From: Eledone cirrhosa
Taxonomy: Eukaryota
Reading direction: 5' to 3'
Assembly: GCA_964016885.1 (NCBI GenBank)
Contig: OZ024740.1
Span: 63,240,001 to 63,304,000 of the forward strand
Length of the DNA: 64,000 nucleotides
Part shown: one piece after another, positions 1,321 through 61,409 of the stretch
How positions within the stretch are numbered: position 1 is the first letter of the stretch
How the letters are laid out: each line of letters begins with the position of its first letter
Made by a program: the position numbers and the translations under genes
The notes under the pieces: model-generated
Told to the model about the DNA's origin: nothing
What the model saw: the letters and a program-made list of their open reading frames with translations, nothing else
Databases searched by the model: none

Positions 1321-2663
<1,343 letters not shown>

Positions 2664-2934
2664 GGAATAGAATGAAACGAAATTGCATTTCTCACTCTTA
2701 GTACGGCACTTACTTAAATGTAAGTATGTATGTATACGTACATACATATATGTATACAGACGTACAGTAGTATGTATATATATACATACATGCACACATA
2801 TATATATGCACGTATCGGTTTACCGAACATTTATTATAATACTCGGTTTGTTTGTTTGTAAACAAACAGCCCGAATTATGCCTTACAGTGTTTAGGCAAT
2901 CACGTCACCTTTTTGTTCAACACTGACACAGGAA

Positions 2935-2975
2935 CGATGTACTAGTTTCAAGCTTATTAGCTATCGTCAGCATTG
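2935..2975 (-). ncRNA. Minimal type I hammerhead ribozyme (inverted copy, element B)
   Basis: Reverse complement: caatg CTGACGA TAGCT aata AGCTT GAAAC TA GTA catcg. Confidence 0.85.
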
Positions 2976-3425
2976 TATACCTTCCTGCCAGATGGTTGAA
3001 CGTCTGAAAGTATATACTTTCCTTATGCATATTACAAATAACAAAAAGTTGACGTGGTTGCCTAAACTGTACGGCGTAATTCGAGCTGTTTGTTTGTTTA
3101 CAAACAAACAAACCGAGCATTATAATAAATGTTCGGTAAACCGATACGTGCATATATATATGTGGGCATGTATGTATATAGATAAATACTACTGTACGTC
3201 TGTATACATATATGTATGTACGTATACATACATACATACATACATTTAAGTAAGTGCCGTACTAAGAGTGAGAAATGAAATTTCGTTTCATTCTATTCCA
3301 TTTATCGTTTTCGGTGTGCCCGGCCGACTGAACTCACTCGATATGCAAATTAGACTGCTCAGCCGTTAATATGCATTAGGAAAGTATATACTTTCAGACG
3401 TTCAACCATCTGGCAGGAAGGTATA

Positions 3426-3466
3426 CGATGCTGACGATAGCTAATAAGCTTGAAACTAGTACAACG
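3426..3466 (+). ncRNA. Minimal type I hammerhead ribozyme (element B)
   Basis: cgatg CTGACGA TAGCT aata AGCTT GAAAC TA GTA caacg; palindromic stem III ACTAGT; GUA cleavage site. Confidence 0.88.
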
Positions 3467-3687
3467 TTCCTGTGTCAGTGTTGATCAAAAAGATGACGTG
3501 GTTACCTAAACACTGTACGGCGTAATTCGGGCTGTTTGTTTGTTTACAAATAAATAAACCGAGCATTATAATAAATGTTCGGTAAACCGATACGTGCACA
3601 TATATATATGTGGGCATGTATGTATATATATACATACTACTATACGTCTGTATACATATATGTATGTACGTATACATACATACTTAC

Positions 3688-3731
<44 letters not shown>

Positions 3732-11738: not shown

Positions 11739-11940
11739 CTGTATGTATGTGTCTGTGTACAAAGAGAGGGAGAAGGAAAGAAAGAGAGAAAGAGAGAGAG
11801 AGAGAAAGATATATATATATATATATATATATTTTTTCATTTGTCTTTATGCGGGGTCGAAAGGAGTTAGGGCTAGAGGCATATGGGTGTGTATGTGTCT
11901 ATATATGCGTCTGTATGTATGTATGTATGTATGTATGTAT

Positions 11941-14790
11941 GTTCTTCTGGTTTTATAATTTCACAGATTTACCAATAGAGGGAGTGTCGGTTTGTAACAT
12001 AGACACAAGACTCTCTCATTGGAATTTACACAACATCAACTAGGTAGATATGTATGTATGCATGTATGTGTAGATATGGATGTTATTGAATGTGTGGATG
12101 TGCATGTTTTGAGTTGTATGTGTGCATGTGTATATGCTTTGCATCTGTACATGTGTATATGCAGTTATTTTTGGAATGTTTTACATATTTTTACTGTTCC
12201 ATTAATGGATTGTACTTGTAATTTCCTAACTAGTTGTTAGTTGTGTTCTTTCTGTTCCTGTGAAGCCTAGCTTTTCAAGATTTGTACTTAGGCAATTACT
12301 AACATACCCCATTGCCCCAATAATCACAGGCATAAATCTGAAGGTGTAATCAGGGTGGAGTATCTGCAGATTTCTCATCAGTTCTGCATAAATATTCTCC
12401 TTGTCACTAATCTTTGATATTATATTGGCATCTGCAGGGCAGCTAATTTCCACTACTGTGCATGTTTTCTTCTCCCTGTCCCACATCATATCTGGTCTGT
12501 TATGCCTGCATTTTATTGGGGTTTTTACTGGAACATTCCACAAGTACTCTTTCATATTATGTACATGGATGTCTTCCACATTGTTGTAGCTTTTAATGTG
12601 TTTATTATCGGGGCTATCTTTTTTACGAACTGCATCGTACAGTGTTTGGCCACTACATCATGCCTCATAGGTAGATAGTACCACGATGACATCTTTGGAC
12701 AGCTGTATGTGTTGTATGTGTGCATGTGTATATGATATCCTCGATGTTAGTTATGCAGAGTCTGCACTTGTTATCACATCTAGGTGTTTTGCCTGCATCC
12801 CTATCTCTTTTGTGAATCAGGTATTTCGTGTTAATCTCCTGTTCTTGGATTGCAAAAGCGTATCCTTCAAAGTGGGAGCCAATATAGCGGTTGTTGGTCC
12901 AAGATAGACTACTTTCCTTGTCTATATTACTCTCACTCTGGAGCTTCCTGGCAACATATCCATGCATGATTTTTTGCTGATAGGCATGCAGTTTTTCATC
13001 CATGGATTCACTGCGATACTGCTGAGCGACATCCCTGGGTGTGAGTTTTTGATTATCACACAGGGAATATCTCTCGAGGAGTTCCTTCCCAACTCTCATG
13101 ATCTTATCTGTTTCATGCAGATAGACTTGCTCTAAAAACGGGCTCCTACGCTTCGAGGTTCGTAGATATTGTCGGAGAGATATTATGCGACATTCAAATG
13201 TTGTCTGGACTGATGTTAGGCCTCTGCCTCCCTGCTTACGTTTCAAGTAAAGGCGGTCTATGTCACTGTTGATGTGGAAGTTTGCCCAGAGAGTTCCGAT
13301 GACCTGATCTTTCTTAATCGGGTGTAGTATTCCCTGGTGACGCGTTCTTTATTACAGATACTATTATAGGATATGTTCTCATCTATCCCCAGGTATCTGT
13401 AATAGTCCTCATCAGATATCGGTGAAACAGTTAGGCCATTGATGACAATGTTGCTAGATTAGGTTGTTGTTTTTCTCCGCTTTACAGTCATGTATGAGAA
13501 TTTATCTTGGCCAAACTACATTCCTAAATCCTTTGAGAACGTTGTAACCAGGTCAAGATTTTTCTTCATCCCATCCATGTTCTTGGCATAGAGTTTCAGA
13601 TCGTCCACAAATAAATTATCGCTTAGGTTCGTATTTCTGTTCTCCTGTGAGCTAATGATGTATCCCTCACATTTCTTGAGCAGAAAGGACAAAGGGTTTA
13701 ATGACAAGATGAATAATATCACAGAGAGACTGTCCCCCTGAAATATACCCCTGCAATATTTTATTTTATCAGTGAAAATAAAGTCCTCCCTCTCTGTCTT
13801 TAACCTTAGGATAGTAGCCCAAAAAGAAGACAGCCTCTCTATTGCTCTGACAATAATGTCTGGGACTTTAGCAAGTTGGAGGGCCTCTATCATCCAAGAG
13901 TGGGGAACAGAATCGAAAGCTTTCCTGTAGTCCAGCCAGACTGTAGTCATATGCCTCCTAAGTTGTAGCACCTGCGACATCGCAGTTTTGTTGATTAAGA
14001 GTTGTTCAGCACATCCCCAAACCCCTTTCTTTCTAGCTGCTTGTTCATCTGTGATGATGTTATTATTTTCACAGTGATCTTGGAGGAATAGGTTCAGGCA
14101 GGCTGTATACATCTTATACATCAGGTTCTGGCATGCAATGGGTCGGTAGTTTTTTGCCAGGTAGGTGTCTTTGTTTTTGGGTACCAGTAATGTTTGTGCT
14201 AATGTCAACCATTCTGGTATAAGTGAATCTCCCTTAAGAACTTGTTGGTAGAGGTCAGTAAAATACCTCCGATAAATATCAGTTTTTTGTACCAGTAGCC
14301 GACAATAATGTCTCTTCCTGGTGTTTTCTTATCTTGGAGTTTTCCTATCACAGTCTCAAGGGTACCCTCACTTATTTCGTATGTTTTTGTTGTAGTGTAG
14401 GACCAATAGTTCTTTCGGATTTCTCTTAGCCACACTGCATCTTGGTTGAAATTCTTCTTTTCACCCCATATTTTGCTCCAAAAGGAATCTATGTCTTTCT
14501 GGGATGGGGCCTCAGTGACACTTATTATTTTGCCATTCATATCTCTCTAGACTGATGTTTGGTTTCGTCTGAATCTTTTATTAAGCACTTTTCTCTCATC
14601 TACCTTCTTCAGGCATCGGCGTTTTTCGCTAACAGCTCTCAATTCTTGTTTGAGGGTGATCAGCTTATATTGGAGAGTTCTGGTTCTACTGTTACCAAAC
14701 ATCGTCTCTATTTTATTTTTCCCTCTTTTTTGGTGAGGAGTGAGGTTTTTTTGTGTTTGTTTGCATGTAAGGAACATTGTCACATATCCT
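11941..14790 (-). mobile_element. R4/Dong-like non-LTR retrotransposon family E, 5'-truncated, decayed
   Basis: NYRPIAC, LDYRKAFDSVPH, GIFQGDSLS, LFVDDLK, CRLC, RPD..VEISCP; (TATG)n on both flanks. Confidence 0.9.
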
Positions 14791-14820
14791 ATGTTTTTTT
14801 ATGTATGTATGTATGTATGT

Positions 14821-18993: not shown

Positions 18994-19058
<65 letters not shown>

Positions 19059-19177
19059 TAATAAGAGGAATTCCAACTTTGTCTGATTTACTCGTTTTAT
19101 TTACAATCCTTTAAAATATATATAATATGGTATTATAATGAAATAGTATGATAGAATATTAAATTCTAAGTGTTAAT

Positions 19178-19216
19178 TGAACAAGTACTTTCATGCTTTC
19201 GCAATCTTCAGGTTCA
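19178..19216 (-). ncRNA. pLTR minimal hammerhead ribozyme
   Basis: Reverse complement: tgaac CTGAAGA TTGC gaaa GCAT GAAA GTAC TT gttca. Confidence 0.88.
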
Positions 19217-19590
19217 TGAAATGTGGTGACAGTCGAGTTTGCAATTTTCAACTGTAATGAGATGGGTAAATTTACTACCTTTTATACATTTTATACAGAG
19301 AAAAGTGGCTCCAGAATGCAAAGCCCTGTAAACTGTATTTCGACCAATCAGTGTGTAGTTTCACTGAATTACTACAGCTGATTGGTTTAAGCGTCACGGC
19401 TGGTTGAGCATGCTAACGTCCAATAGTCATACCCAACGTATCAATTGTTTTGCTTTTTGAAATGATGAAAATAGCATTTTCTATTAATCATCACCATCAA
19501 CATCACTTTTATTATTATTATTATTGTTGTTGTTATTGTTGTTAGTGGTCGTGGTCATAGTGGTAGTAGAAGTAATACCCCTAGGCGTTA

Positions 19591-21917
19591 TTATTGTTCA
19601 TTTAGCTTGGGTTTGAATTTATCAATAAAATTCTTTTCTTTGATTTTTCTCTTGATTTCACTTGGGCTGTGTAATTTGTAGAATGGGAATATTATAAATA
19701 TTCCCTGACCACATGTTGCCAGGTGGCCGCTTAGGGGTATCTGACGGACATTTGGGTCTCTGATTTGTTGACGGTGTACCCGTGCACGTTCCGATAGTGC
19801 ATTTCCAGTTTGACCGACATATAGTTCTTCACAATTCGGGCATTTAATGCAGTAAATTAGATTTCTGCTTTTGCAGTTCATATTTGCATTTGGGAATATT
19901 TTTCCAGTTTTTGTTCTCATATATTGACCGACGTGTATGGATTGACATGTGCCGCATCGATTATCATTGCATTTAGATACAGTGAATGATTGGTCTTTGT
20001 TGTTAAGGTCAAACTTTGCTTTTGTTAGCAATTGCTTCAAATTTTTTGGCTGTCTTTTACTAAGAGTCAAAGATCGATCTGTGATTAAGCCTTTTAATTC
20101 ATTACTTTGAGCAATGATCGGTAGGTTTGCTTTGGCAGTGTTGAATATATTCTGGTGACATGGGTTGTGTGTCATTATAAATGGTATGACCAGTTCTTGG
20201 TTTCTTCTTCCTTGGGTTGTTCTAAGTTGTTGTATAGGTATTTTTATAGCCCGCTGTATGCCATTTTCTGTAAGTAGAGATGGGTATTTTTGTTTGAGCA
20301 AAAGTTCTCTTAGTTCTGTTAGGCGTTTGTACCTGGTATTCGTATCTTCTACAATGGTACAAATTCTTCTGGCTAGGCAGTATGGGATGTTGCGTTTTGT
20401 ATGAGGTGGATGGCACGACTTAAAATTCAGATATTGATGGGTGTCTGTGTGTTTATAATATATATCCGTGGTAATGGTGGTGTCGTTTTTGATTATCATT
20501 ATATCTAGGAATGGTAATTTGGTCCTACTCATCTCTTTTGTGAATTGGAGAGATGGGTGTAGGTTATTCAGGAGGATATTGAACTCATCCAGAGTATCTA
20601 GAGATTCTGTCCAGATGATGAAACAGTCGTCAAGGTATCTCTTCCAAGATTTTTCAATGTACTTTCTAAAGTCAGTACTATATTTTTCCTCTATTTCTTG
20701 GTAGAGTTGTTGTTCTAAGTATCCCATTACAGAGTTCGCGTAAACGGGAGCAAACTTCGTTCCCATCGCTGTGCCTCTAATTTGGATGTAATTCTTTCCA
20801 TTGAAGAAGAAAGTGTTGTTTTCCAGAATAAGTTTAACTGCGTCTAATATAAATGGCGCTGTGAATCTAATGGGAATCACTTCTCTATGTTTTTCCACCC
20901 AGTATTTAACCGCCTTTATTCCTAAATCATGTGTAATGTTGGTGTAAAGGCTTACCACATCAAAACTGAGTAGAAGTGAATTCGTTTCCGTGGTTTTGGT
21001 AAGATGGGACAGGAAGTCGATATCATCCCGGATGAAACTGGGTATGTGAATACATAGTGGTTTCAAAATAATGTCAACAAAATTGCTTAGACGGTGAGTG
21101 GGGCATGTTGGACCAGCTATAATAGGTCTAAGTTTTAAGTCTTTTGGGCGTAATATTTTATGTACTCACTGTTTTGTTCTCTTACTGCCAGTTGTATTTC
21201 TCTTGACTTGTGAACTTTCGGTAGGCCATACAGGTTGCTGGGTTTTGACTCAAAATTGGTGATGTAGTCTCTTTCCTTATCAGTAAATGAGTTGTGGTAT
21301 TTTGAAGCCAGGTTGTTGATCTTCTTCATGATGTTGTGGTCTATATTTGACGGTATTTTATGATAGAATGTTGTGTCTTTCAGTTGTTCCTCAACCAAAT
21401 CCTTGTAGTATTCAGTATCCATTATAACAACTGCACCCCCTTTATCTGCTTGTTTAATTATTATTGTTTTATCATTTTGTATACGTTTAAGTGCAGACAT
21501 TTCTGATTTGTTAATGTTTGGCCTAACATTAGTATTATGTCTAAGAGGAAATTTAGACAGGATGTCAATGTATTGGTCGAGATAAATATTTCTTCCTTTT
21601 GGCGGAGTGAAATTTGATTTATTCTTTACTAGTGATTCATCACTCTCATTATTTTTATCAGCGAAGAATTCTACAAGACGTAATTTTCGACAGAATTCTT
21701 GGGTATCCTCCTTCAGTTCTTGGTGGTTGACTGTTGGAGTCGGTGTGAATTTCAGTCCTTTTGACAGAATTTGCATTTCATCATTGTCAAGATCTCTTTT
21801 AGATAAATTAATTATTTTAGGAACTACGTGTACAGCTGTTTTGGGTATGCTTCCTCCTGGAGTTTTTCTTTTTCCGGTTTTTGTTGTCCTGACGTTAAAA
21901 AATGAATTTTTCTCTGT
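19591..21917 (-). CDS. PLE ORF2: reverse transcriptase + GIY-YIG endonuclease (one 1-bp frameshift at ~21158)
   Basis: IINLS..LSKGLKF, ADKGG, YGLPKVHK, RPII, FDVVSLYT, GTAMG, RYLDD, Cys linker, IYCIKC..YVGQT..R..H; ORFs 21135-21776 and 19591-21066 join if one A is added to an A4 run. Confidence 0.92.
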
Positions 21918-23173
21918 TCAGGATTTATATTCCTGTTGGTGTTCGCTTGATGAACTTTTGGTCGTGATATTATATTTGGTTTCGTTATGTATTTTGTCCT
22001 ATTTTTGGTATTCTGTATATTATTTTTCTTCCTGTTAGCATTATTTTTAACAATCTGGGAAAATGACCTAGGTTTGCTTTCAGGTTTAGATCGTTTTTTC
22101 GTCCAGTTTCTTGTGGGCAATCTCTGTTGAGATCTTGAGAGTGATCTGGTTATTCTACGTTTTGTTTCCACATTCCTTGTTGGTAGTCTCTGTTGAGATC
22201 TTGAGAATGATCTCCTGGTTTTACTACTTCTCATGGTCTGGTCAAAGGAATACCTATCGTGTTTGTGCTTTTTGTTCATGTTGTGTGCGATAGGGTGTTT
22301 TTGTAGAAAAAGCGAAGAGTTATTACCGTAGTTCTTCTTTGATTCAAAGTAAGGTGAGTGTTTGTGTTGGTACGTGTTCTGGCGTATGTTGTGTTGATGA
22401 GATTGTCCACTTTTAATGCTTTTTCTCAGGGTTCCAGAGTCTTTACCGTAATTTGCAGCATATTCATCGAGAAATAATTGTTTCTGCTGCCATACCTTTC
22501 TTGATTTGTTTTCTTCTTTTAAGATATCTCCGATCCATAGTTCTCGTAGTTTTTCAGCTATAATACCAGTCGTTAGCTTTGAAATTTCAACTTCAATTTG
22601 GTCATCAATAGCTTCATATTTGGCTTTGTAGCGGGATTGTTTACATTCAGAAATGAAGATGTCGGTCCTGAATTTTGTCAATGTAAGTTCCCATCGGAGT
22701 TTTGTTTCTTCTTCTGGTTCTCCTGCAATTTCTGTAATTAGGCATTTACGAGGGAGTATGGGTGCCGTTAGAGAGAGCCATTTCGAATGTGTTTCGACAT
22801 ATTTTTCGCCTCTGTATGCTTTCCAGAAATTTTGTTTTCTTATGTTAAGGAATTTTTTCCATGTCTTCCACATTTCTTTTCTTATTCGATGTGTTTTGTT
22901 TTCAAAATTTCTTTCGTTTATTTCTGACATCCAAGGGGGTTGTGGTAGGCTTTCTCTTGTATCTTTGATAACTGTTGGTATAATTTCAGCTAAATTCTTA
23001 ATTTCAGAGTTTATATGTTCAGTTATAAGTTTTCCGTCTGTAGATTGTTTTTCTATTTCCTTTAAAATAGAGGATTGTGTGTCCATCATCGTGATAAGTG
23101 TTGATAATTTCGATGATATCTCCTTTAGAATTCTTTCTGATTCTGTTGGTTTCATTTGTTGCTTTCCAGACAT
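21824..23173 (-). CDS. PLE ORF1, 449 aa, coiled-coil-like N-terminus and basic C-terminus, function unknown
   Basis: Uninterrupted 1350-nt ORF inside the pLTRs, overlapping the ORF2 frame by 94 nt. Confidence 0.8.
   Translation of the reverse strand: MSGKQQMKPTESERILKEISSKLSTLITMMDTQSSILKEIEKQSTDGKLITEHINSEIKNLAEIIPTVIKDTRESLPQPPWMSEINERNFENKTHRIRKEMWKTWKKFLNIRKQNFWKAYRGEKYVETHSKWLSLTAPILPRKCLITEIAGEPEEETKLRWELTLTKFRTDIFISECKQSRYKAKYEAIDDQIEVEISKLTTGIIAEKLRELWIGDILKEENKSRKVWQQKQLFLDEYAANYGKDSGTLRKSIKSGQSHQHNIRQNTYQHKHSPYFESKKNYGNNSSLFLQKHPIAHNMNKKHKHDRYSFDQTMRSSKTRRSFSRSQQRLPTRNVETKRRITRSLSRSQQRLPTRNWTKKRSKPESKPRSFSQIVKNNANRKKNNIQNTKNRTKYITKPNIISRPKVHQANTNRNINPEQRKIHFLTSGQQKPEKEKLQEEAYPKQLYT
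21896..21902 (-). promoter_or_regulatory. Putative -1 ribosomal frameshift slippery heptamer U_UUU_UUA
   Basis: ORF1 reads CAT TTT TTA; a -1 slip enters the ORF2 frame (TTT TTT AAC). Confidence 0.7.
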
Positions 23174-23379
23174 GTTGGCATATACACAATAGGAATATAT
23201 ATATAGATATAGATAGGTAAATATACACGGGTGTGTATGATTGTGTATAGAAGATTATATTAATAAGAGGAATTCCAACTTTGTCTGATTTACTCGTTTT
23301 ATTTACAATCCTTTAAAATATATATAATATGGTATTATAATGAAATATTATGATAGAATATTAAATTCTAAGTGTTAAT

Positions 23380-23418
23380 TGAACAAGTACTTTCATGCTT
23401 TCGCAATCTTCAGGTTCA
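23380..23418 (-). ncRNA. pLTR hammerhead ribozyme (5' copy)
   Basis: Identical to 19178-19216. Confidence 0.88.
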
Positions 23419-24024
23419 TGATATGTGGTGACAGTCGAGTTTGCAATTTTCAACTGTAATGAGATACCCCTAAGCGGCCACCTGGCAACATGTGGTCAGG
23501 GAATATTTATAATATTCCCTGGCAACATGTGGTCAGGGAATATTTATAATATTCCCATTCTACAAATTACACAGACCAAGTGAAATCAAGAGAAAAATCA
23601 AAGAAAAGAATTTTATTGATAAATTCAAACCCAAGCTAAATGAACAATAATAACGCCTAGGGGTATTACTTCTACTACCACTATGACCACGACCACTAAC
23701 AACAACAACAACAACAATAATAATAATAATAAAAGTGATGTTGATGGTGATGATTAATAGAAAATGCTATTTTCATCATTTCAAAAAGCAAAACAATTGA
23801 TACGTTGGGTATGACTATTGGACGTTAGCATGCTCAACCAGCCGTGACGCTTAAACCAATCAGCTGTAGTAATTCAGTGAAACTACACACTGATTGGTCG
23901 AAATACAGTTTACAGGGCTTTGCATTCTGGAGCCACTTTTCTCTGTATAAAATGTATAAAAGGTAGTAAATTTACCCATCTCATTACAGTTGAAAATTGC
24001 AAACTCGACTGTCACCACATTTCA

Positions 24025-24063
24025 TGAACCTGAAGATTGCGAAAGCATGAAAGTACTTGTTCA
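24025..24063 (+). ncRNA. pLTR hammerhead ribozyme (inverted copy)
   Basis: tgaac CTGAAGA TTGC gaaa GCAT GAAA GTAC TT gttca. Confidence 0.88.
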
Positions 24064-24243
24064 ATTAACACTTAGAATTTAATATTCTATCATACTATTT
24101 CATTATAATACCATATTATATATATTTTAAAGGATTGTAAGTAAAACGAGTAAATCAGACAAAGTTGGAATTCCTCTTATTAATATAATCTTCTATACAC
24201 AATCATACACACCCGTGTATATTTACCTATCTATATCTATATC

Positions 24244-24275
<32 letters not shown>

Positions 24276-25399: not shown

Positions 25400-28300
25400 A
25401 ATGGCGACCGTTGTGGTCAGTGTCCGATAATCGGACGTGTGTAATTACGGCTTACATGAAGGCAACATACCATATATTGGAAAAAGTTGAGCTACATTAC
25501 GCGGTAAGATTACATACAATAATTCTACATAAGTGTTTGAACTGTAAGTGTGTTGTAAAACACCTATTTATATGAACGATACATACACTTATGATATATG
25601 AACGATACATATACTTTAACATATAAATGCAACGTTGTTATATTACATTTATAAAGAAATATACAAGTAACGTTTTCGATTCAGAAACAAAAACATAAGT
25701 GTTTGAACTGTGAATATGTTGTGAATAAGTTGTAGAACACCTATTTATGTGAATGATACATAAACTTTAACATATAAATACAGCGTTGTTATATTATATT
25801 ACATTCATAAAGGAATATACTAAGTAACGGTTCTTTTTGTTCTCGATTCAAACGATTCAAGAACAACGTTTAAAACACAGTTGTAGAATTAAAAACTAAC
25901 TGAAAAGAAATATTACCCAAGCTGTGAATAACTTTAAATTTGATTCTGAGAGAACTTTGTCGAAACTTTTAAAGAAGATCATCGACTATTTTGAAAAATA
26001 AATACGAAATATTAGTGAATAGACGAACTCATCATGACAAAAAGTACAAGTCTCCTTCGACCAAATCGCAACTACAACCGTTGTATACAATGGAGCTACG
26101 AGCTTAACAAAGTATTATATGAAGCATACAAACAATCTGAACCCCAAAAGTTCGGTTTTATGCAAAGGCTAAAAACTTTATGGAACTTCAAACACCCAGA
26201 ATTAGACTTTTCTCCAAAGCATTTAAATGAACAGGCAAAACGTATCATTAGATGTAAATTGATACATCTAACGGAATTGAGTGATACTACAAATACAGCC
26301 CTTGTAGACAACTACCCCACCTCCACTGACAGACAAAGAGTATGGCCAGCTAAATCTAACAGTGAACAGCTCACCAACAATTTTGCTGAAATCCATCCCA
26401 CTTCCACTGAAGAACAGCGAGAAAGGTCAGCTAACTCTAGTAGTAATTGTCACCACATCAACAACGAGGCTGAAATTCATGACTCTACTGAACAAACAGA
26501 GCACCAAAAACTTGTGGACACCCTACAAGTGATATGGAACGATATGTTTCAAGAGATACACAGCCTTAATGTGAGTGACAGACCATACAACACCAGAATC
26601 AGTAAAGAACCCACTAAAGTGGAATTGGAAGCGGTGAACGAAATAGCTGGCAATTATCTGAAGGCTATACGATCTAAAGGTGTAGAAACAACATTTGAAA
26701 CGCTTAATGTTTTGTTATGTTTCAGCTGTCACATTGCTATCATATAACACACATCTAAAACCACGCAATCAAGATACAAACAGAAAGCCTGAACCAACGT
26801 GGATGCGAAATTTAAAAACCAAAATGTTGTCCCTGAGACGAAGTATCTCACACATCGCAGTCGTTATTAAATGCAATATAGAGAGCAACTTCACACGACA
26901 CCAGGAAGACCTAAAGAAAAAGTTAGAGAGACGATTTGGAGATACAAAATTTAAAACTTTGAACTCCAAATTACACCAGTTGAAACAACAACTCACAGCT
27001 ACAACAGAAAGACTAAAATATAAGTCAACAGCACATAAACGACAAGTGCTAAATAGATTGTTTGCCAGAGATCCTAAATCAGTTTATCGCAGCTTCGGTG
27101 GCAAAAGCTCAATCCCTGTAAACGACACCCCTTCAAAAGAACAGGTTGAGAGCTACTGGAGATCTGTATGGGAAACGGATGACGGATTCAACAGACAAGC
27201 TAATTGGCTAAAAGAACTGGAACAGGACTACTGCCAACATGTCCAGAGAAAACAATATGACATAGATGGGTCAATACTGGAAACAGCTCTACAGAGAATG
27301 TCGAATAGGAAATCGCCAGGCCCAGACCTCATTACAGGATACTGGTTGAAGAATTTCACTTTCTATCGGCAAGATCTCATACGGCTGTTTACAGAAACCA
27401 TTAAAGGCACACAAGAACTGCCCAGATGGTTATCAACTGCCACTACTCTCCTCATTCCCAAAAATAGACAAACCACCCTTGCTAAAAATTACCGCCCAAT
27501 AGCCTGCCAAAACATCATGTATAAATTATATACTGGGTGCCTTAACCTGTTCTTACAGGATCACTGTGCTACCAACAACATCATAACACATGAGCAAGCT
27601 GGTGGAAAGAGGGAGGTGTGGGGTTGCATAGATCACCTACTAACCAACAAAATGATTCAGGAAAAAACAACAAAGAATCGCAGAAACATGACTGTGGTGT
27701 GGCTGGACTATCAAAAAGCATTTGATAGTGTACCTCATGGGTGGATTATTAAGGCTTTACAGTTAGCTAAAGTCCCACAACCATTGGTAGCTGCTGTTGA
27801 ACGCCTGACCAAGAACTGGTACACCAATTTGATCCTTAGAGGTGAGAAGGAGCAAGTTAAGACTGATAAGATACATTACCAGAAGGGCATCTTTCAGGGT
27901 GATAGCTTGTCAGTGCTACTCTTCGTTCTCTCACTGAATCCACTGTCTTACCTACTCAGGAAACAAGGTGGACAAAGAAGTGGGCCCAGAAGTATCTCCC
28001 ATCTTTTCTTTGTTGATGACCTGAAGTTGTATGGGCCAAATATCAATGACATCAAGAAACAATTGGACCTCATTACACAATTTTCAACCGACATCAAAAT
28101 GAAATTTGGTGAGTCCAAGTGTGCATATTTGGCAGTAAAACGTGGAAGAGCTGTGCCCTCCTCTAGAAATCTAGAGATGAACGGCCTGACAATACAACCT
28201 CTGCAGTCAGGTGACAACTACAAATATCTTGGACAGGATTAGAATGTCAGATATGATGGACCCATAAATAAGGAGAGAACCAGAACTGAATACCTCAGAA

Positions 28301-29619
28301 GAGTAAAGAAAATATGGTCATCAGAACTGTCAGCATACAACAAATACATTGCCCACAATACTTATGCTGTGCCAATTCTAACGCCAACATTTGGCCTGCT
28401 GAACTGGTCATTGCAAGAACTAAGTGAGATGGGTGTTAGAACTCGAAAACTTCTCAGTGTTACTGGGAACTTTAACATCAATGGTGATGTGGATAGGCTA
28501 TACTTCTCACGCAAGGAAGGTGGCCGTGGTCTAAAATCAATATTAACAACATATGAGACCCGGATAGTAACACTGAAGCAACACCTTCAACGGAGGAAAA
28601 AGGTTGGCAACCATCTTGCCCAGGTTTATGAGCATGAAGAAGAAAATATCATTAGGATAGCCACTGGTCTGGAGGAGAGATATGGAATAAAGTCTGATAT
28701 AAATCTCTCACCCAGAGAAATCGGAAGATCCTATTCAATGTTCAAACAAGATTAAAAAATTGACCAATTTACAGAAAAAGTTGTGCATGGATACTTGAGG
28801 CGTAAAACACAGACCATAGAGGGGATAAACTACTCAAAAAGCCTGGTATGGAGTTCCGACAAGTTTATGACATCACACCTTGAGGGATATCTCTATGCAA
28901 TACAGGAACAAGAACTCCCTACCAAATATCTGCTGCACAAAAGAGGAGGGACAGCAGCTGACAATAAATGTAGGCTATGTAAAACAAAGATCGAGGATGT
29001 AAGCCACATTGTTGCCATCTGCGAAAGAATGTCATTTCGCTACTACCTCCCCATGAGACACGATGGGATAGCTAGAACCATCTGGAACGCACTTCGGAAA
29101 ACAAAATTAACAACAAACGAGGAGGAATATATTGAGACAGATAGCACTAAGGAATACTGGTGGAACCTGAAAATAAAAACTGCCACCAAATTAAAGCACA
29201 ACCGGCCTGATATTGTTGTTTGGGACCACACATTGAAAATGTGTTCTGTTGTGGAGATCAGCTGCCCACTTGATGTAAACGTTGTCAGAAAAATACAGGA
29301 GAAGGAGGACATCTACGGACCATTGATGAGGAGTTTACAAATCCAGTATCCAAGATACACCTTTAGCTTCATACCCATCATTATTGGAGCTACGGGTTAT
29401 ATACCAACCTGCTTAGACCAAAGTATGACTGAACTTGGATTTGCGGACAGAAAGCGCAGCTCCCTAATTCATAGTCTACAAATGGCTGCGATAGCTGGCA
29501 CCTTCAAAATTTGCAAAACATTCTTGCGATTCAATGGATGACAATTTCTTTTCTTTTACAACCTTGCCACCAGGAAGGTGGCCGGTCAAAAAAATATACA
29601 CGAAATTAATAGAAAGAGA
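25400..29619 (+). mobile_element. R4/Dong-like non-LTR retrotransposon family F, full length
   Basis: 5' UTR, single long ORF, short 3' UTR; (TACA)n on both flanks. Confidence 0.92.
26034..29541 (+). pseudogene. RT-REL polyprotein of family F (1 frameshift at ~26715; stops at 28240 and 28753)
   Basis: N-terminal W..ELN..GFMQRLK.LW domain; NYRPIAC, QGDSLS, FVDD; CRLC..H...C; RHD; RPD..VEISCP. Confidence 0.92.
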
Positions 29620-30170: not shown

Positions 30171-33100
30171 AATCAACGCGATCAGTCGCATATTTTAGCG
30201 TGGGCGACTATTTATTAAATTTAAGATGAATACTATCTCTCACAGTAATGCCACAACTTTAGTCATGTTGAATAACTGGTTATTCTTCTAACTATATCTT
30301 CTGAAGGCACCTTTTATTCGAATTCGTAGAGATATCCGACTAAATACATAATTCATTTTACAAGGATTTGCTACAAACAGCATGGCTGAACACAACATAA
30401 ACAACAAAGTTAAGGAAGTATCGAAGACAACCAACAAGAAAGGTAAACAAACTTTATTCAGTTGTAGCTACAGAAGAAACCGAAATTATAAATCGCATTT
30501 CTCTTGGAGTTGCGAACTTAATAATGATTTATTTAATTGTTATAAAATGGCAAAAAACAATCCCTCCATTGGCTATATGAACAGAATGAAGCTATACTGG
30601 GACGAAATGCACCCAGAGCTAAATTATTTCACAGCGAAACAATTATGCCAACAAGTTTTTTTAACGTAAAAATAAGATAAATATTATTAACTCTAAGTCC
30701 CCCACAACAAACATGGGATCAACAACACGTGCTACAGGTCGCCATGCTACTAGACTTCCTAGCAGCCAAGTCGAACAGCGCCTTGAAACAACTATGCCTG
30801 TAAGAAACTTGACACCACCTGTACCATCTAAGTCTACCTCGAAACCTGGGGAAAACACTATCGATAATAATAATAATCGAAGAAATAATAATAATAATCG
30901 AAGAAATTTGACACCACGTGTACCATCCGAGTCTACCTCGACTGTTGTGGAAAATACTATCGATAATGATAATAATCAAAAGTATAGACAATTGCAAATT
31001 TCCCTCAACGAAATCTTCCAGAGAGAAATTAATTCATATACAAATATCTCTCTTGCTGAACGTGTTAAAACGACAATGTTTAATAAAAAACCAAATAATG
31101 AAATATTACGTGTTATTCACGAAATAAGGGATGAATATTTTTATATAAACGCCTGTTTATATGCCCTAGCAACGACAGTGAAGCATTATCTTTGTGATAG
31201 CAGAGATATTAAAAAGAACAGAACACCACCAAAAATACCATCATATATAACTAAAATAGAAAAAAAGATAGCTGACCTACGAAAAAACATAGGATATGTG
31301 ACAATGCTCCTTACAAACAAACACAAAAAACCTCACTCCTCACCAACAAAGAGTGAAAAATAAAATAGAGACGATGTTTGGTAACAGTAGAACCAGAACT
31401 CTTCAATGTAAGCTGATCACCCTCAAACAAGAATTGAGAGCTGTTAGTGAAAAAGGCCGATACCTGAAGAAGGTAGATGAGAGAAAAGTGCTTAATAAAA
31501 GATTCAGACGAAACCAAACATCAGCCTATAGAGATATGAATGGCAAAATAATAAGTGTCACTGAGGCCCCATCCCAGAAAGACATAGATTCCTTTTGGAG
31601 CAAAATATGGGGTGAAAAGAAGAATTTCAACCAAGATGCAGTGTGGCTAAGAGAAATCCGAAAGAACTATTGCTCCTACACTTCAACAAAAACATACGAA
31701 ATAAGTGAGGGTACCCTTGAGACTGTGATAGGAAAACTCCAAGATAAGAAAACACCAGGAAGAGACATGATTGTCGGCTACTGGTACAAAAAACTGATAT
31801 TCTATCGGGGGTATCTTACTGACCTCTGCCAACAAGTTTTTAAGGGAAATACACTTATACCAGAATGGTTGACATTAGCACAAACATTACTGGACCCCAA
31901 GAACAAAGACACCCACTTGGCAAGAAACTACCGACCCATTGCATGCCCATTGCATGCCAGAACCAGATGTATACAGCCTGCATAAATCTATTCCTCCAAG
32001 ATCACTGTGAAAATAATAACATCATCACAGATGAACAAGCAGCTGGAAAGAAAGGGGTTTGGGGATGTGCTGAACAACTCCTAATCAACAAAACTTCGAT
32101 GACGGAGGTGCAACAACTTAGGAGGAATATGGCTACAGTCTGGCCGGACTACAGGAAAGCTTTCGATTCTGCTCCCCACTCATGGATGATAGAGGTCCTC
32201 CAACTTGCTAAAGTCCCAGACATTATTGTCAGAGCCATAGAGAGGCTGTCTTCTTCTTGGGCTACTATCCTAAGGCAGAGAGAGAGGACTCTATTTTCAC
32301 TGATAAAATAAAATATTGCAGGTGTATATTTCAGGGGGACAGTCTCTCTGTGATATTATTCATCTTGTCATTAAACCCCTTGTCCTTTCTGATCAAGAAA
32401 TGTGAGGGATACATCGTTGGCTCACGGGAGGACAGAAATACGAACCTAAGCGATAATTTATTTGTGGACGATCTGAAACTCTATGCCAAAAACATGGATG
32501 GTATAAAGAAAAATCTTGACATGGTTACAACGTTCTCAAAGGATATAGGAATGGAGTTTGGCCAAGATAAATACTCATACATGACTGTAAAGCGGGGAAA
32601 AACAACAACACAATCTAGCAACATTGTCATTAATGGCCTAACTGTTTCACCGATATCTGATGAGGACTGCTACAGATACCTGGGGATAGATGAGAACATA
32701 TCCTATAATGGTATCTGTAATAAGGAACGTGTAACCAGGGAATACTACACCCGATTAAGAAAGATCTGGTAATCGGAACTCTCTGCGCAAAACAAAACAG
32801 TGGCTTACAATGTGTTTGCTGTGCCTGACCTAACACCAACGTTTTGAGTACTCAATTGGACGATAGACGAAATCCCAGCAGTTGATGTTGGAACTCGAAA
32901 AATACTAAACAACACCGGAAAGTTCCACATCAACAGTGACATAGATCGCCGTAAGCAGGGAGGCAGAGGCCTAACATCAGTCCAGACAACATTTGAATGT
33001 CGCATCATATCTCTCCGACAACATCTACGAACCTCGAAGCGTAGGAGCCCGTTTCTCAAGCAAGTCTATCTGCATGAAACAGATAAGATCACGAGAGTTG

Positions 33101-34241
33101 GGAAGGATCTCCTCGAGAGATATTCCCTGTGTGATAATCAAAAACTCACACCCAGGGAAGTCGCTCAGCAGCATCACGGTGAATCCATGGATGAAAAACT
33201 GCATGTTTATCAGCAAAAAATCATGCATGGATATGTTGCCAGGAAGCTCCAGAGTGAGAGTAATATAGATAAGGAAAGTAGTCTATCTTGGACCAACAAC
33301 CGCTATATTGGCTCCAACTTTGAAGGATACGCTTTTGCAATCCAAGAACAGGAGATTAACACGAAATACCTGATTCACAAAAGAGATAGGGATGCAGGCA
33401 AAACACCTAGATGTGATAACAAGTGCAGACTCTGCATAACTAACATCGAGGATATCACCCATGTCATCTGCAGCTGTCCAAAGATGTCATCGCGGTACTA
33501 TCTACCTATGAGGCATGATGTAGTAGCCAAAACACTGTACGATGCAGTTCGTAAAAATGATAGCCTGATAATAAACACATTAAAAGCTACAGCAATGTGG
33601 AAGACATCCATGTACATTATATGAAAGAGTACTGGTGGAATGTTCCAGTAAAACCCCAATAAAATGCAGGCATCACAGACCAGATAGTATGATATGGGAC
33701 AGGGAGAAGAAAACATGCACAGTAGTGGAAATTAGCTGCCCAGCAGATGCCAATATAATATCAAAGATTAGCGAAAAGGAGAATATTTATGCAGAACTGA
33801 TGAGAAATCTGCAGATACTCCACCCTGATTACACCTTCAGATTTATGCCTGTGATTATTGGGGCACTGGGGTATGTTAGTAACTGCCTTAATACAAATCT
33901 TGAGAAGCTAGGCTTCACAGGAACAGAAAGAACACTAGTTAGGAAATTACAAGTACAATCCATTAATGGAACAGTAAAAATATGTAAAACATTCCAAAAC
34001 ATTTTCATCTAATAACTGCATATACACATGTACAGATACAAAGCATATACACATACACACATACACCTCAAAACATCCACATCTACACATACAATCACAT
34101 CTATATCTACACATGCAGATATAAATACATAATCTACCTAGTTGATGTTGTATAAATTCCAATGAGAGAGTCTTGTGTCTATGTTAGAAACCGACTCTCT
34201 CTCTATTGCTAAAAATTTGTGAAATTATAAAACCAGAAAAA
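30171..34241 (+). mobile_element. R4/Dong-like family E, full length, multiply frameshifted
   Basis: ORF pieces 30382-34012 carry the same domains as family F; highly similar to 11941-14790; 5' flank (TACA)n. Confidence 0.92.
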
Positions 34242-34539
34242 CATACAAACAGATACTCCACCCTGACTATACCTTCAGATTTATAATCGTTTTTCGTAAA
34301 TCATTTTCATTTAAATTTAATTTATTTGAATGATACTTAAGTTTAGAAAATGAGTGTGTTTCCTGTGTCTTCTTAATCAACCGATTTGGCAAGTATTTTC
34401 ATTTTCTTGCTCAAATATTCTGCATAGAAATATAGCAGGGAGACCAGAGTCAAGATATGATGCCACTGAGAAGTAGTGAGGACGAGAACAAAATAAGAAT
34501 GTAATAAAGTCAAACCTTCACAACTCCACAATATAAGAG

Positions 34540-47768: not shown

Positions 47769-47814
47769 GATTCTACAGGACTAGAACTGTTTCATTCTTT
47801 AGAAATCATCAGGA

Positions 47815-50511: not shown

Positions 50512-51800
50512 TACTTTGGGAGGGTCATGTTGCCAATAAGAAACACACGCACCAGTTGCTTTCACTACAATTTATCATAAATTAAATTTATAAATTTAAG
50601 AATTTATAAATTTCCGGTTGGCTAGTTGGTTCCACAACCGGACGGTTGTTCATATATTGTTCTTTCGTCATACATTCTGTGACCTCTTCAGTGACTGGGG
50701 ATTCTTTTCTTTGTTTTGTGCCTCTCCTTTGTTCTGTCCTACGCCATCTTGTTTTTGTGTGTGTTGTGTGCTTAGTTTGCGCATGTGTTACATACGGGTG
50801 TCTGTGTTTGTTTTTATTTGTTTATTTATTTGTTTATTTACATGTTACTGGTTGGTTGTTTGTTCTATGTGCGTGTGTGTTTTCATTTTGTCTTTAATTG
50901 TAAGTTGTGATGTTGCTATTCCATTCATGTTTTCTATTTAGTTTTGGTTGGAGTTCATTTATGTTTATTGCCTCTGTGATTTGTCTAAACATTGCGTCTT
51001 TTCTGTGTGTAGATTTTATTTTTATTTCTATGTTCTCTAATATGCCCTTATGTTCTATTTTAGCATGTTGGTGGAGTATTGATGATTCTTTTTTATCTTG
51101 AAGCTCTCGCCAGTGTTCATTTAACCGTTCTCCTATACTACGAGCTGTCTCACCTATGTACACTATATTCTTATCTTTACATTGTCCTTCAGTACATCTT
51201 ATGCTAAATACTACATTTCTAGTGTTACAGTTAATATGGGGGTTTAGTTTACAGATTATGCATTTCTTATCTATACAGGGAGGTCTTTGAAAAGGGTATG
51301 TATTACTAATAAGTGTTTTCATGGAGGTACCTGGTCTTTCTACTATATTAATATTAAGTTTAGGTTTATCTAGAGCCCTTCTAAATTGGTAAGCTAATTC
51401 ACCTCTAAGGGTTGTATTCATGAACATTACACTCTGGTATTTATTGCTATCATACCCTGAGTTTATTCTATTAACCTTATTCCTAGTTCTTTCTATTCTA
51501 TTCCAAAATGTTCTCCTATACAAGGGGCAGGTCCCATTTGTATCCTTATTTACCATTTTTTTCCCATTTGGTTGTGGCTCCTCTATATACTCTGATTTTA
51601 TCTCTCTGATTGTAACCAGAGAACTGCATACGGTGGATGAAGTGTTGTATGTGCCTCTCTAGTTCTTTGCGTTGCACATGCGGCATAGCAACTGGTGGGT
51701 GTGTTTCTTATTGGTAACATGACCCTCCCAAAGTATAACAATATCGGTTTCAACACACGTTTTCAGATAAAGAATCTTGCTAAACAAATTCAGAAACGAA
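50508..51800 (-). mobile_element. 5'-truncated PLE (second family) with GIY-YIG remnant and inverted pLTR
   Basis: ORF 50894-51556 has CIIC..C..RNVVFSIRC..YIGETAR..ER..EH..PKLN; terminal block 50508-50560 is inverted at 51687-51739. Confidence 0.9.
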
Positions 51801-54261: not shown

Positions 54262-58231
<3,970 letters not shown>

Positions 58232-58875: not shown

Positions 58876-58924
58876 GATTCTACAGGACTAGAACTGTTTC
58901 ATTCATTTGAAATCATCAGGAATC
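58876..58924 (-). ncRNA. Hammerhead ribozyme (mini-element N, second copy)
   Basis: Same as 47769-47817 with changes only in the stem II loop. Confidence 0.85.
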
Positions 58925-60126: not shown

Positions 60127-60784
60127 TGTGTGTGTGTTAATAATAAGTTGACAAGTTTCATTGGTAGTACCGATTGCATCTCAGTGTACTCAATAGGTAA
60201 GGTTATGTAAAAATCCGAGAGTAGACACTAAGTTGTCTGCTTCAATACAACACACGTACATGGGTACCATAAATCTATACCATAAATCTATACTCGATGT
60301 TCGACCACTCTTAATGTAGCAAGAGAGCGTACACCATCTACTGTAGCATTTATTATACAACAATGCACAATCGGTGCATGTCGCTTCATCAGCGAATCTC
60401 GCCTAATTAATAACCAATCGATCGACAAAATTCGATTCCAGTCCGTGCCGGCTATGGCAGTGAATACGACAGGTGACACAGTAGTACATTAGTAACTGAA
60501 ACCCCTACGCGTTATCAAAATATATGACGTAGTCACTACTTTAACATTCATAGCCAATGGTCTTCAAAATGTTTTTAAATAAATATACAGTAAATTATCA
60601 AATATACTATATGTAGATTTAATGCTCCATCATCCACTTTTCTAAAAAAGTATATCATACACAAAACGCCACCATCAACAGTTTTCCAAGAGATGTCAGC
60701 ATGAATGGACCTGTTATTTTTCTCTAAAACATTTTTCCGATTCCGCCCTGTCTGTCGCTTCAATCTTTCTAATTTGTCATTCTT

Positions 60785-60820
60785 TCTTCTGATGAAGGAC
60801 TAGCGCCCGAAACGTTAAAA
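60785..60820 (+). ncRNA. Minimal hammerhead-like motif
   Basis: CTGATGA AGG actagcg CCC GAAACGTTA; weak stem I. Confidence 0.6.
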
Positions 60821-60991: not shown

Positions 60992-61409
60992 TAATTATGT
61001 AATAAAAAACACAAAATAATTATTCCATTACCCAAGGTTTCACAAAGTTAGACGATTCTAACAGAACTGTTTGATATCGTTCATCAGAAGGAATCTTTAT
61101 TTGGATATCTATATTTATTTAAATGTAAGTATGTATGTATGTATGCAAGTATGTATGTATACGTACATACATATATGTATACAGACGTACAGTAGTATGT
61201 ATATATATACATACAGGCACAGATATATATATGCACGTATCGGTTTACCGAACATTTATTATAATGCTCGGTTTGTTTGTTTGTAAACAAACAAACAGCC
61301 CGAATTACGCCGTACAGTGTTTAGGCAACCACGTCACCTTCTGTTAGAATCGTCTAACATCGTGAAAGCTTGGGTAATGAAATAATTATATTGTGTTGTT
61401 TATTACATA

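Follow-up and report, generated by a model that had tools for sequence, protein, structure and literature searches.

Element B, a repeat at positions 2658-3692 of a 64,000-nucleotide stretch of Eledone cirrhosa DNA (contig OZ024740.1; the whole stretch is called the window here), is probably a decayed, non-coding 445-nt retrozyme of the animal non-LTR kind, whose insertion into a (TA)n microsatellite was carried out in trans by the RT/GIY-YIG protein of a Penelope-like element (PLE). An earlier note on this DNA had described the repeat as a mobile hammerhead monomer, and its interpretation overlooked two points: a tandem with an inverted copy, a tail and a (TA)n target is the standard structure of a Penelope-like insertion, and such hammerhead monomers already form a named class.

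Layout of the element B locus

The window is repeat-rich, with 28-50% GC, many microsatellites and broken retroelements. Self-comparison places the forward arm of element B at 3040-3692 (+), a stretch of 653 nt or about 1.46 units with a period of 444-448 nt, and the inverted arm from 3034 down to 2658 (-), about 375 nt long, 5'-truncated and head-to-head with the forward arm. On the unit, which has 36.6% GC (measured on 3246-3690), the inverted arm extends from the equivalent of 3367, through position 3481 and round to the equivalent of 3305. The outer ends of both arms merge with one (TA)n tract. The earlier description of about 1.45 head-to-tail copies of a monomer of about 445 nt with an inverted partial copy is therefore real; the limits of 3036-3690 given for the tandem require a small correction, as the homology begins at 3040 and ends at 3692, where CATTTA passes into (TA)n. 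Position 3481 does not mark a particular junction, as the inverted arm continues straight across it; only 3306-3366 occurs once in the window. The features are as follows, sites 1 and 2 being the two 3' end sites described below.

2627..2659, no strand: (TA)n tract, left half of the target, common to the neighbouring element A (from the sequence)
2658..3034, minus strand: inverted 5'-truncated arm, with its 3' end at site 2 fused to (TA)n (from self-comparison)
3035..3039, no strand: head-to-head junction, 5 bases fitting the continuation of neither arm, without a (TA)n remnant
3040..3483, plus strand: first unit length of the forward arm, a permuted monomer
3249..3304, plus strand: 'tail' of 56 nt between 3' end sites 1 and 2
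3306..3366, plus strand: link segment, present once in the window and spanned by contigs that come from other copies
3484..3692, plus strand: second, partial unit (0.46), joined to (TA)n at its 3' end (site 1)
3691..3729, no strand: (TA)n tract, right half of the target (from the sequence)
61119..61340, minus strand: dispersed fragment of the element B family, with its 5' end at the equivalent of 3490 and its 3' end at site 1

In a comparison of about 200 common bases, the divergence among the three segments of element B at this locus is 5.1, 7.0 and 5.1%, and their divergence from the copy at 61340-61119 is 3.9, 4.0 and 3.0%. The locus is, to judge from these figures, an old insertion, decayed by 3-7% from a source that it apparently had in common with the distant copy. 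The same distances bear on the proposal that a DNA-level repeat (a satellite, a fold-back or a MITE-like sequence) was duplicated locally, the hammerhead being a relic. The unit is hairpin-rich and one rare letter is common to both forward repeats, as such a duplication would have it, but local segments that are further apart than they are from a copy 58 kb off indicate that there was no recent local copying; moreover, the unit has no terminal inverted repeats, and the constancy of its 3' ends together with the scatter of its 5' ends indicates reverse transcription, so that we regard a DNA-level origin as very unlikely. It is also unlikely that the two arms are separate insertions lying side by side in the same microsatellite. 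Element A sits in the same tract, which has thus been hit repeatedly, the inverted arm carries T at the 3613-equivalent where both forward repeats carry G, and the divergence amounts to 5-7%; against this, there is no (TA)n between the arms, both of them have A3428 in stem I, a minority letter with a share of about 0.11-0.26 in the family, and element A and the coding PLE of the window have their arms arranged in the same way.

Element A, which adjoins element B in this (TA)n tract, consists of an inverted arm at 1555-2040 and a forward arm at 2036-2630 that are 96-97% identical, and it has a 30-nt terminal repeat at a period of 565; strict and relaxed scans gave no hammerhead within 1555-2630. 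On either side of the dispersed fragment at 61340-61119 lies a 77-nt copy of a different repeat, one that has a degenerate hammerhead; these two copies (within 61430-60985) are oppositely oriented and about 90% identical, which places the fragment at the centre of this other family's head-to-head insertion. It may have arisen by a template jump onto RNA of element B at site 1, or have been inserted later.

The hammerhead ribozyme

A scan for type I hammerheads gave 8 matches in the window, against a mean of 0.03 (maximum 1) in 100 shuffled windows. Element B has one hammerhead per arm, at +3431-3461 and -2970-2940.

3413..3473, plus strand: type I hammerhead of the forward arm, with the stem I mismatch A.A
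2940..2970, minus strand: type I hammerhead core of the inverted arm, with the stem I mismatch A.C

Stem I is composed of 5 bp, a 6-nt bulge and 7 bp, and the core of the forward hammerhead (3431-3437 and 3452-3455) is intact. The cut is predicted after A3461, in the GUA triplet 3459-3461, which lies where it had been reported before. The single stem I mismatch of each copy was also recognised correctly, and the two copies combined do give cgatg/catcg; as a consensus this can be derived from both copies, but the family has three or more stem I variants, of which this is one. The word 'canonical', which the earlier note had used for this ribozyme, holds in the sense of the metazoan type I form, in which 1-2 pairs make up helix III below a palindromic loop and efficient cutting is reported for the dimer only (PMC4209133). 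It does not hold beyond that, since helix III is just one A-U pair under the palindromic loop CUAG, helix II opens with a U.U mismatch before its 4 bp, and Rfam returned no hammerhead match to element B either at gathering level or among 98 matches to E 10. Nor does either copy take up the active hammerhead at minimum energy, the active fold lying 6.8-7 kcal/mol higher, which counts against mobilization by a PLE in trans. In most, though not all, animal retrozymes the hammerhead can fold freely within the circle; in the predicted circle of this mutated copy, the pair probability of the proximal stem I is at most 0.05. The mir-297-like Rfam matches were rejected, being simple-repeat hairpins far below the cut-offs.

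The palindrome ACUAGU of the element B hammerhead is predicted to pair with itself at -4.8 kcal/mol, and efficient cutting would be expected only when two copies pair through it; for hammerhead motifs of axolotl, 6-22% cleavage as monomers has been reported (PMC7229834). Li et al. (2026) recognise an 'active' locus by two consecutive units each with a complete hammerhead, and the present locus has no such pair, a statement that applies to this locus and not to the family. Because there is one mutated hammerhead per strand, unit-length RNA cannot be released from it, and the locus is unlikely to be a source of new copies.

The unit and its family in public reads and contigs

Round the element B circle, the longest frames are 46 codons in sense and 75 in antisense, and an RT + GIY-YIG ORF is absent between the repeats. 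Element B did not match any of the six PLE protein frames of the window (tblastn, best E 0.11), and this result counts against the PLE-in-trans reading. Folded as a circle, the unit reaches -125.3 kcal/mol with 67% of its bases paired and z -5.2 against shuffles, a score to which low-complexity hairpins add and which compares with z -4.7 for the opposite strand.

The evidence from reads comes from 4 of 23 candidate runs, none of the 23 being on record as RNA, aligned to 3246-3690: one sample supplied three contig sets and a second sample a RAD run. The family counts do not include sixteen runs from other organisms, whose shares were 0.03-0.17. The family is very abundant, with 13,914, 12,753 and 12,630 contig pieces matched to 3246-3690 and 75,461 of 12,467,656 RAD reads (0.6%, a library-biased figure). 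Motif scans of metagenome and viral contigs gave 0 matches.

The link 3306-3366 is bridged on both sides by contigs that show 6-15 differences (e.g., the pieces 3264-3396, 3275-3381, 3265-3383 and 3262-3383); therefore the unit is continuous in other copies. The earlier claim that a monomer without an ORF is the mobile unit is upheld by these contigs together with the short sense frame, and the unit is real and non-coding. The same contigs stand against the view that the locus is made of ordinary pLTR scraps of a coding PLE, namely two or three truncated insertions abutting each other, with 3306-3366 as unrelated DNA and no monomer at all. Such scraps would agree with the single occurrence of the link in the window, with the report that truncated ends of PLEs are often found near each other on opposite strands (PMC4209133), and with a contig depth of 0.39 M over 3306-3335 vs 1.5-2.3 M at the hammerhead. 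However, the depth at the link is of the same order as that over 3486-3515, and no consistent foreign sequence appears at 3305-3400 among the 24 loose-end rows listed. The view is thus largely refuted and we consider it most improbable.

Among the 40 variant rows listed, of 87 in all, those inside 3426-3466 lie at the free N7 position, in loop II and at both partners of one stem I pair. The shares of T3428 and A3464 agree in the RAD reads (0.05/0.06 and 0.53/0.51) and fit U-A, G.U and A-U variants, but they disagree in the contigs (0.59-0.63 vs 0.31-0.33); neither data set is phased, and this disagreement was held against the PLE-in-trans reading. The variant pattern as a whole is one of constraint on the hammerhead and was counted in favour of that reading.

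Several apparent ends were discarded. The RAD 'ends' at 3279-3283 and 3348-3351 (more than 25,000 loose-ended reads) lie on AATT at 3279 and 3348 and look like restriction-library cuts and chimeras, and opposite-strand joints at 3246-3257 were set aside because they coincide with TTAA 3246 or adjoin it. Loose ends at 3331, 3398, 3489 and 3537 were rejected as foreign flanks, since by eye they resemble variant forms of the unit.

Copy ends, tail and target

All three free 3' ends of element B copies in the window fall at CATTTA, at two sites 56 nt apart. Site 1, the CATTTA ending at 3248/3692, holds the 3' ends at 3692 and 61119, and site 2, the CATTTA ending at 3304, holds the 3' end at 2658. 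The 5' ends, by contrast, are spread over the equivalents of 3367, 3484 and 3490. In three runs of one sample, contigs run loose into (TA)n behind 3305 in 69/823, 60/713 and 55/750 of the partly aligned contigs and behind 3292 in 53/823, 44/713 and 43/750, these two positions being the best two rows of six listed per run; the count covers site 2 and not site 1, as 3646-3690 was left out for being repetitive and 3248 is at the border of the aligned part. The ends of element B are thus fixed at 3', ragged at 5' and not randomly permuted, and the circular permutation of copy ends that the earlier note had expected is not what these copies display. The note had also held that fixed ends together with continuation into a longer coding element would speak against its reading; the fixed 3' ends exist, and no coding continuation was seen among the loose-end and joint rows listed, although a low-copy coding version may also exist.

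PLE insertions have been described as comprising a partial tandem, an adjacent inverted 5'-truncated copy and, at one of the ends, a tail of 30-40 bp, with a bias for microsatellites (PMC8557442). The purified PLE protein of anole cuts and extends both DNA strands, and with it two internal RNA start sites delimit the tail, hammerhead cleavage is not needed and uncut RNA is used (PMC11167929). The tail, the inverted arm and the (TA)n targeting of element B correspond to these hallmarks of PLEs; (TA)n is found at both ends of the insertion and also in the contig loose ends. Two observations count against the PLE-in-trans reading. The element B tail of 56 nt is longer than the 30-40 nt described for PLEs, that of the coding PLE here being 61, and within the (TA)n target a target-site duplication, which in retrozymes exceeds 4 bp when present, is illegible.

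The coding Penelope-like element of the window

The window contains a coding PLE with which the layout of element B can be compared.

19054..24248, minus strand: coding PLE, comparator outside element B, with RT + GIY-YIG above the Pfam cut-off and a CX4CXXC linker

This element is near-intact, with a linker of the Neptune type, a coding sequence distributed over at least three frames, a long N-terminal region preceding the RT and repeats that are 98.5-99.6% identical. It carries three hammerheads, in which helix II begins with U.U and loop III is palindromic. Its inverted arm points outward, its two 3' ends are separated by 61 nt, and (TA)n flanks the element on either side. Comparison of element B with the PLE repeats (7 window regions) gave low-complexity matches only, a further point against the PLE-in-trans reading. 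As the layout is shared without sequence homology, the coding PLE shows the mechanism but is not established as the helper.

Other elements occur elsewhere in the window. PLE-like RT/GIY-YIG frames with CX4CXXC linkers, below the Pfam cut-off, are located at 54855-58231 (+), where there is an Asn-rich insert, and at 50894-51658 (-). A third hammerhead family, with a longer helix III, is represented by short fragments at 47774-47812 and 58881-58919 (-), each inside (TA)n. By eye, a minimal hammerhead-like motif (CUGAUGA ... GAAACGUU) that is absent from the scan results can be seen at about 60780-60820 (+), and its host repeat may be of the Poseidon type. Non-LTR RT elements at 11932-14799 (-), 26019-29541 (+) and 30665-34255 (+) end, again by eye, in a zinc-knuckle and a restriction-like nuclease motif.

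Proposed origin and the nature of the template

In the mechanism that we propose, a tandem source locus elsewhere would be transcribed, and the PLE protein would bind the element B RNA and cut both strands of AT-rich DNA. From each DNA end, reverse transcription would then start at an internal position of the RNA, site 1 for one end and site 2 for the other; the forward cDNA would run for 1.46 units through an uncut hammerhead on a template of more than one unit, and both cDNAs would stop early and afterwards be joined 5'-to-5'. The inverted arm, which lacks the rare G (3613-equivalent), may derive from a second RNA molecule. If both hammerheads had cut, the resulting linear unit could have given just 231 or 287 nt of cDNA from these sites, and since both arms pass an intact hammerhead the template was presumably uncut there. 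The circular or multimeric RNA template put forward in the earlier note is retained, as a forward arm of more than one unit through an intact hammerhead would need one. Most simply, this template would be an uncut or partly cut tandem transcript, and a ligated circle would fit nearly as well.

The latter alternative keeps the same element and enzyme and takes as the template a covalently closed, unit-length circle, cut by the hammerhead, ligated by the host and copied for about 1.5 rounds; we hold it to be quite possible without leaning toward it. As a circle the unit has a much stronger predicted fold than shuffled sequences, low-complexity hairpins contributing to this, and retrozymes of coral, mussel and axolotl have been reported to accumulate as circles (PMC7229834). 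The rare G is present in both forward repeats, at 3613 and at the matching position (about 2% of the contig depth is not T there; read by eye, next to a gap set by the aligner), and at 3493 too neither repeat has the majority letter, a pattern expected of copies made from a single molecule; the chance of two shared sites is about 0.01-0.02 and that of one same-base site about 0.1, from substitution counts made by eye. However, a homogeneous tandem source yields the same shared letters, and the anole PLE uses uncut RNA in vitro (PMC11167929). In two of the three 5' ends, moreover, the copy stops short of the upstream cut site, by 22 nt in the forward arm and by 28 nt in the dispersed copy, as it would on a transcript cut at the 5' hammerhead, although the base of the long hammerhead hairpin lies there too. 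This old, short locus is a weak witness on circle vs linear template. Only tentatively can the element B insertion be called the fossil of a Penelope RT dimer that primed from both ends of a cut microsatellite, at two fixed internal sites of a ribozyme-made circular RNA, and ran more than once round this RNA. If it is one, it would provide a direct genomic trace of circRNA-templated retrotransposition, which, in those parts of the literature that we consulted, is proposed for animal retrozymes and not shown. With its two named start sites, element B could be used directly in the in vitro PLE assay that already exists, by which circle and linear template could be compared.

Comparison with known systems

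Our search of published papers gave, among those listed, none on the element B family. Defined at the level of sequence, element B is likely a new family of animal non-LTR retrozymes, mobilized by PLEs. It resembles the metazoan non-LTR retrozymes of coral, mussel and axolotl/newt (satellite 2), as these are described (Cervera and de la Pena 2020, PMC7229834), in its non-coding, low-GC (<50%) tandem unit within the range of 150-450 nt, in the one type I hammerhead per unit, in the predicted self-paired circle and in its coexistence with PLEs. The one-pair helix III with a palindromic tetraloop is like that of the axolotl HHR_Amex1, and the U.U at the base of helix II is like that of HHR_Amex2 (PMC7229834). 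Compared with the retrozymes of coral, mussel and axolotl, element B has a different sequence and a size at the upper limit, and its circles and cleavage are predicted ones; the locus, again unlike those of PMC7229834, has fewer than two units and one hammerhead per strand. The inverted arm, the two fixed 3' sites and the (TA)n targeting are features of element B that the available text of PMC7229834 does not describe for its retrozymes.

These features connect element B with the PLEs. Retrozymes are reported to track and to derive from PLE repeats (10.64898/2026.07.22.740005, whose supplements list vertebrate and four invertebrate genomes), and both the non-autonomous PLE MRC1 of Chlamydomonas (PMC8557442) and the Xenopus retrozymes, regarded as PLE derivatives (10.64898/2026.07.22.740005), share with element B the head-to-tail partial tandems, the absence of coding sequence and the insertion layout of EN+ PLEs. 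Unlike what is described for MRC1 and the Xenopus retrozymes, no pLTR homology to an autonomous partner was found for element B within the window. With EN+ PLEs, both those of the Neptune type (CX2-5CXXC linker) and the anole Poseidon PAc, as described (PMC8557442, PMC11167929), element B has in common the inverted 5'-truncated arm, the hammerhead in the repeat, a tail from two internal start sites and an AT-rich or microsatellite target, whereas it differs from EN+ PLEs by having no RT/GIY-YIG ORF and a tail of 56 nt rather than 30-40 nt. Element B would thus add a family to the animal retrozymes that is tied to the Penelope machinery by its insertion footprint and not by co-occurrence alone.
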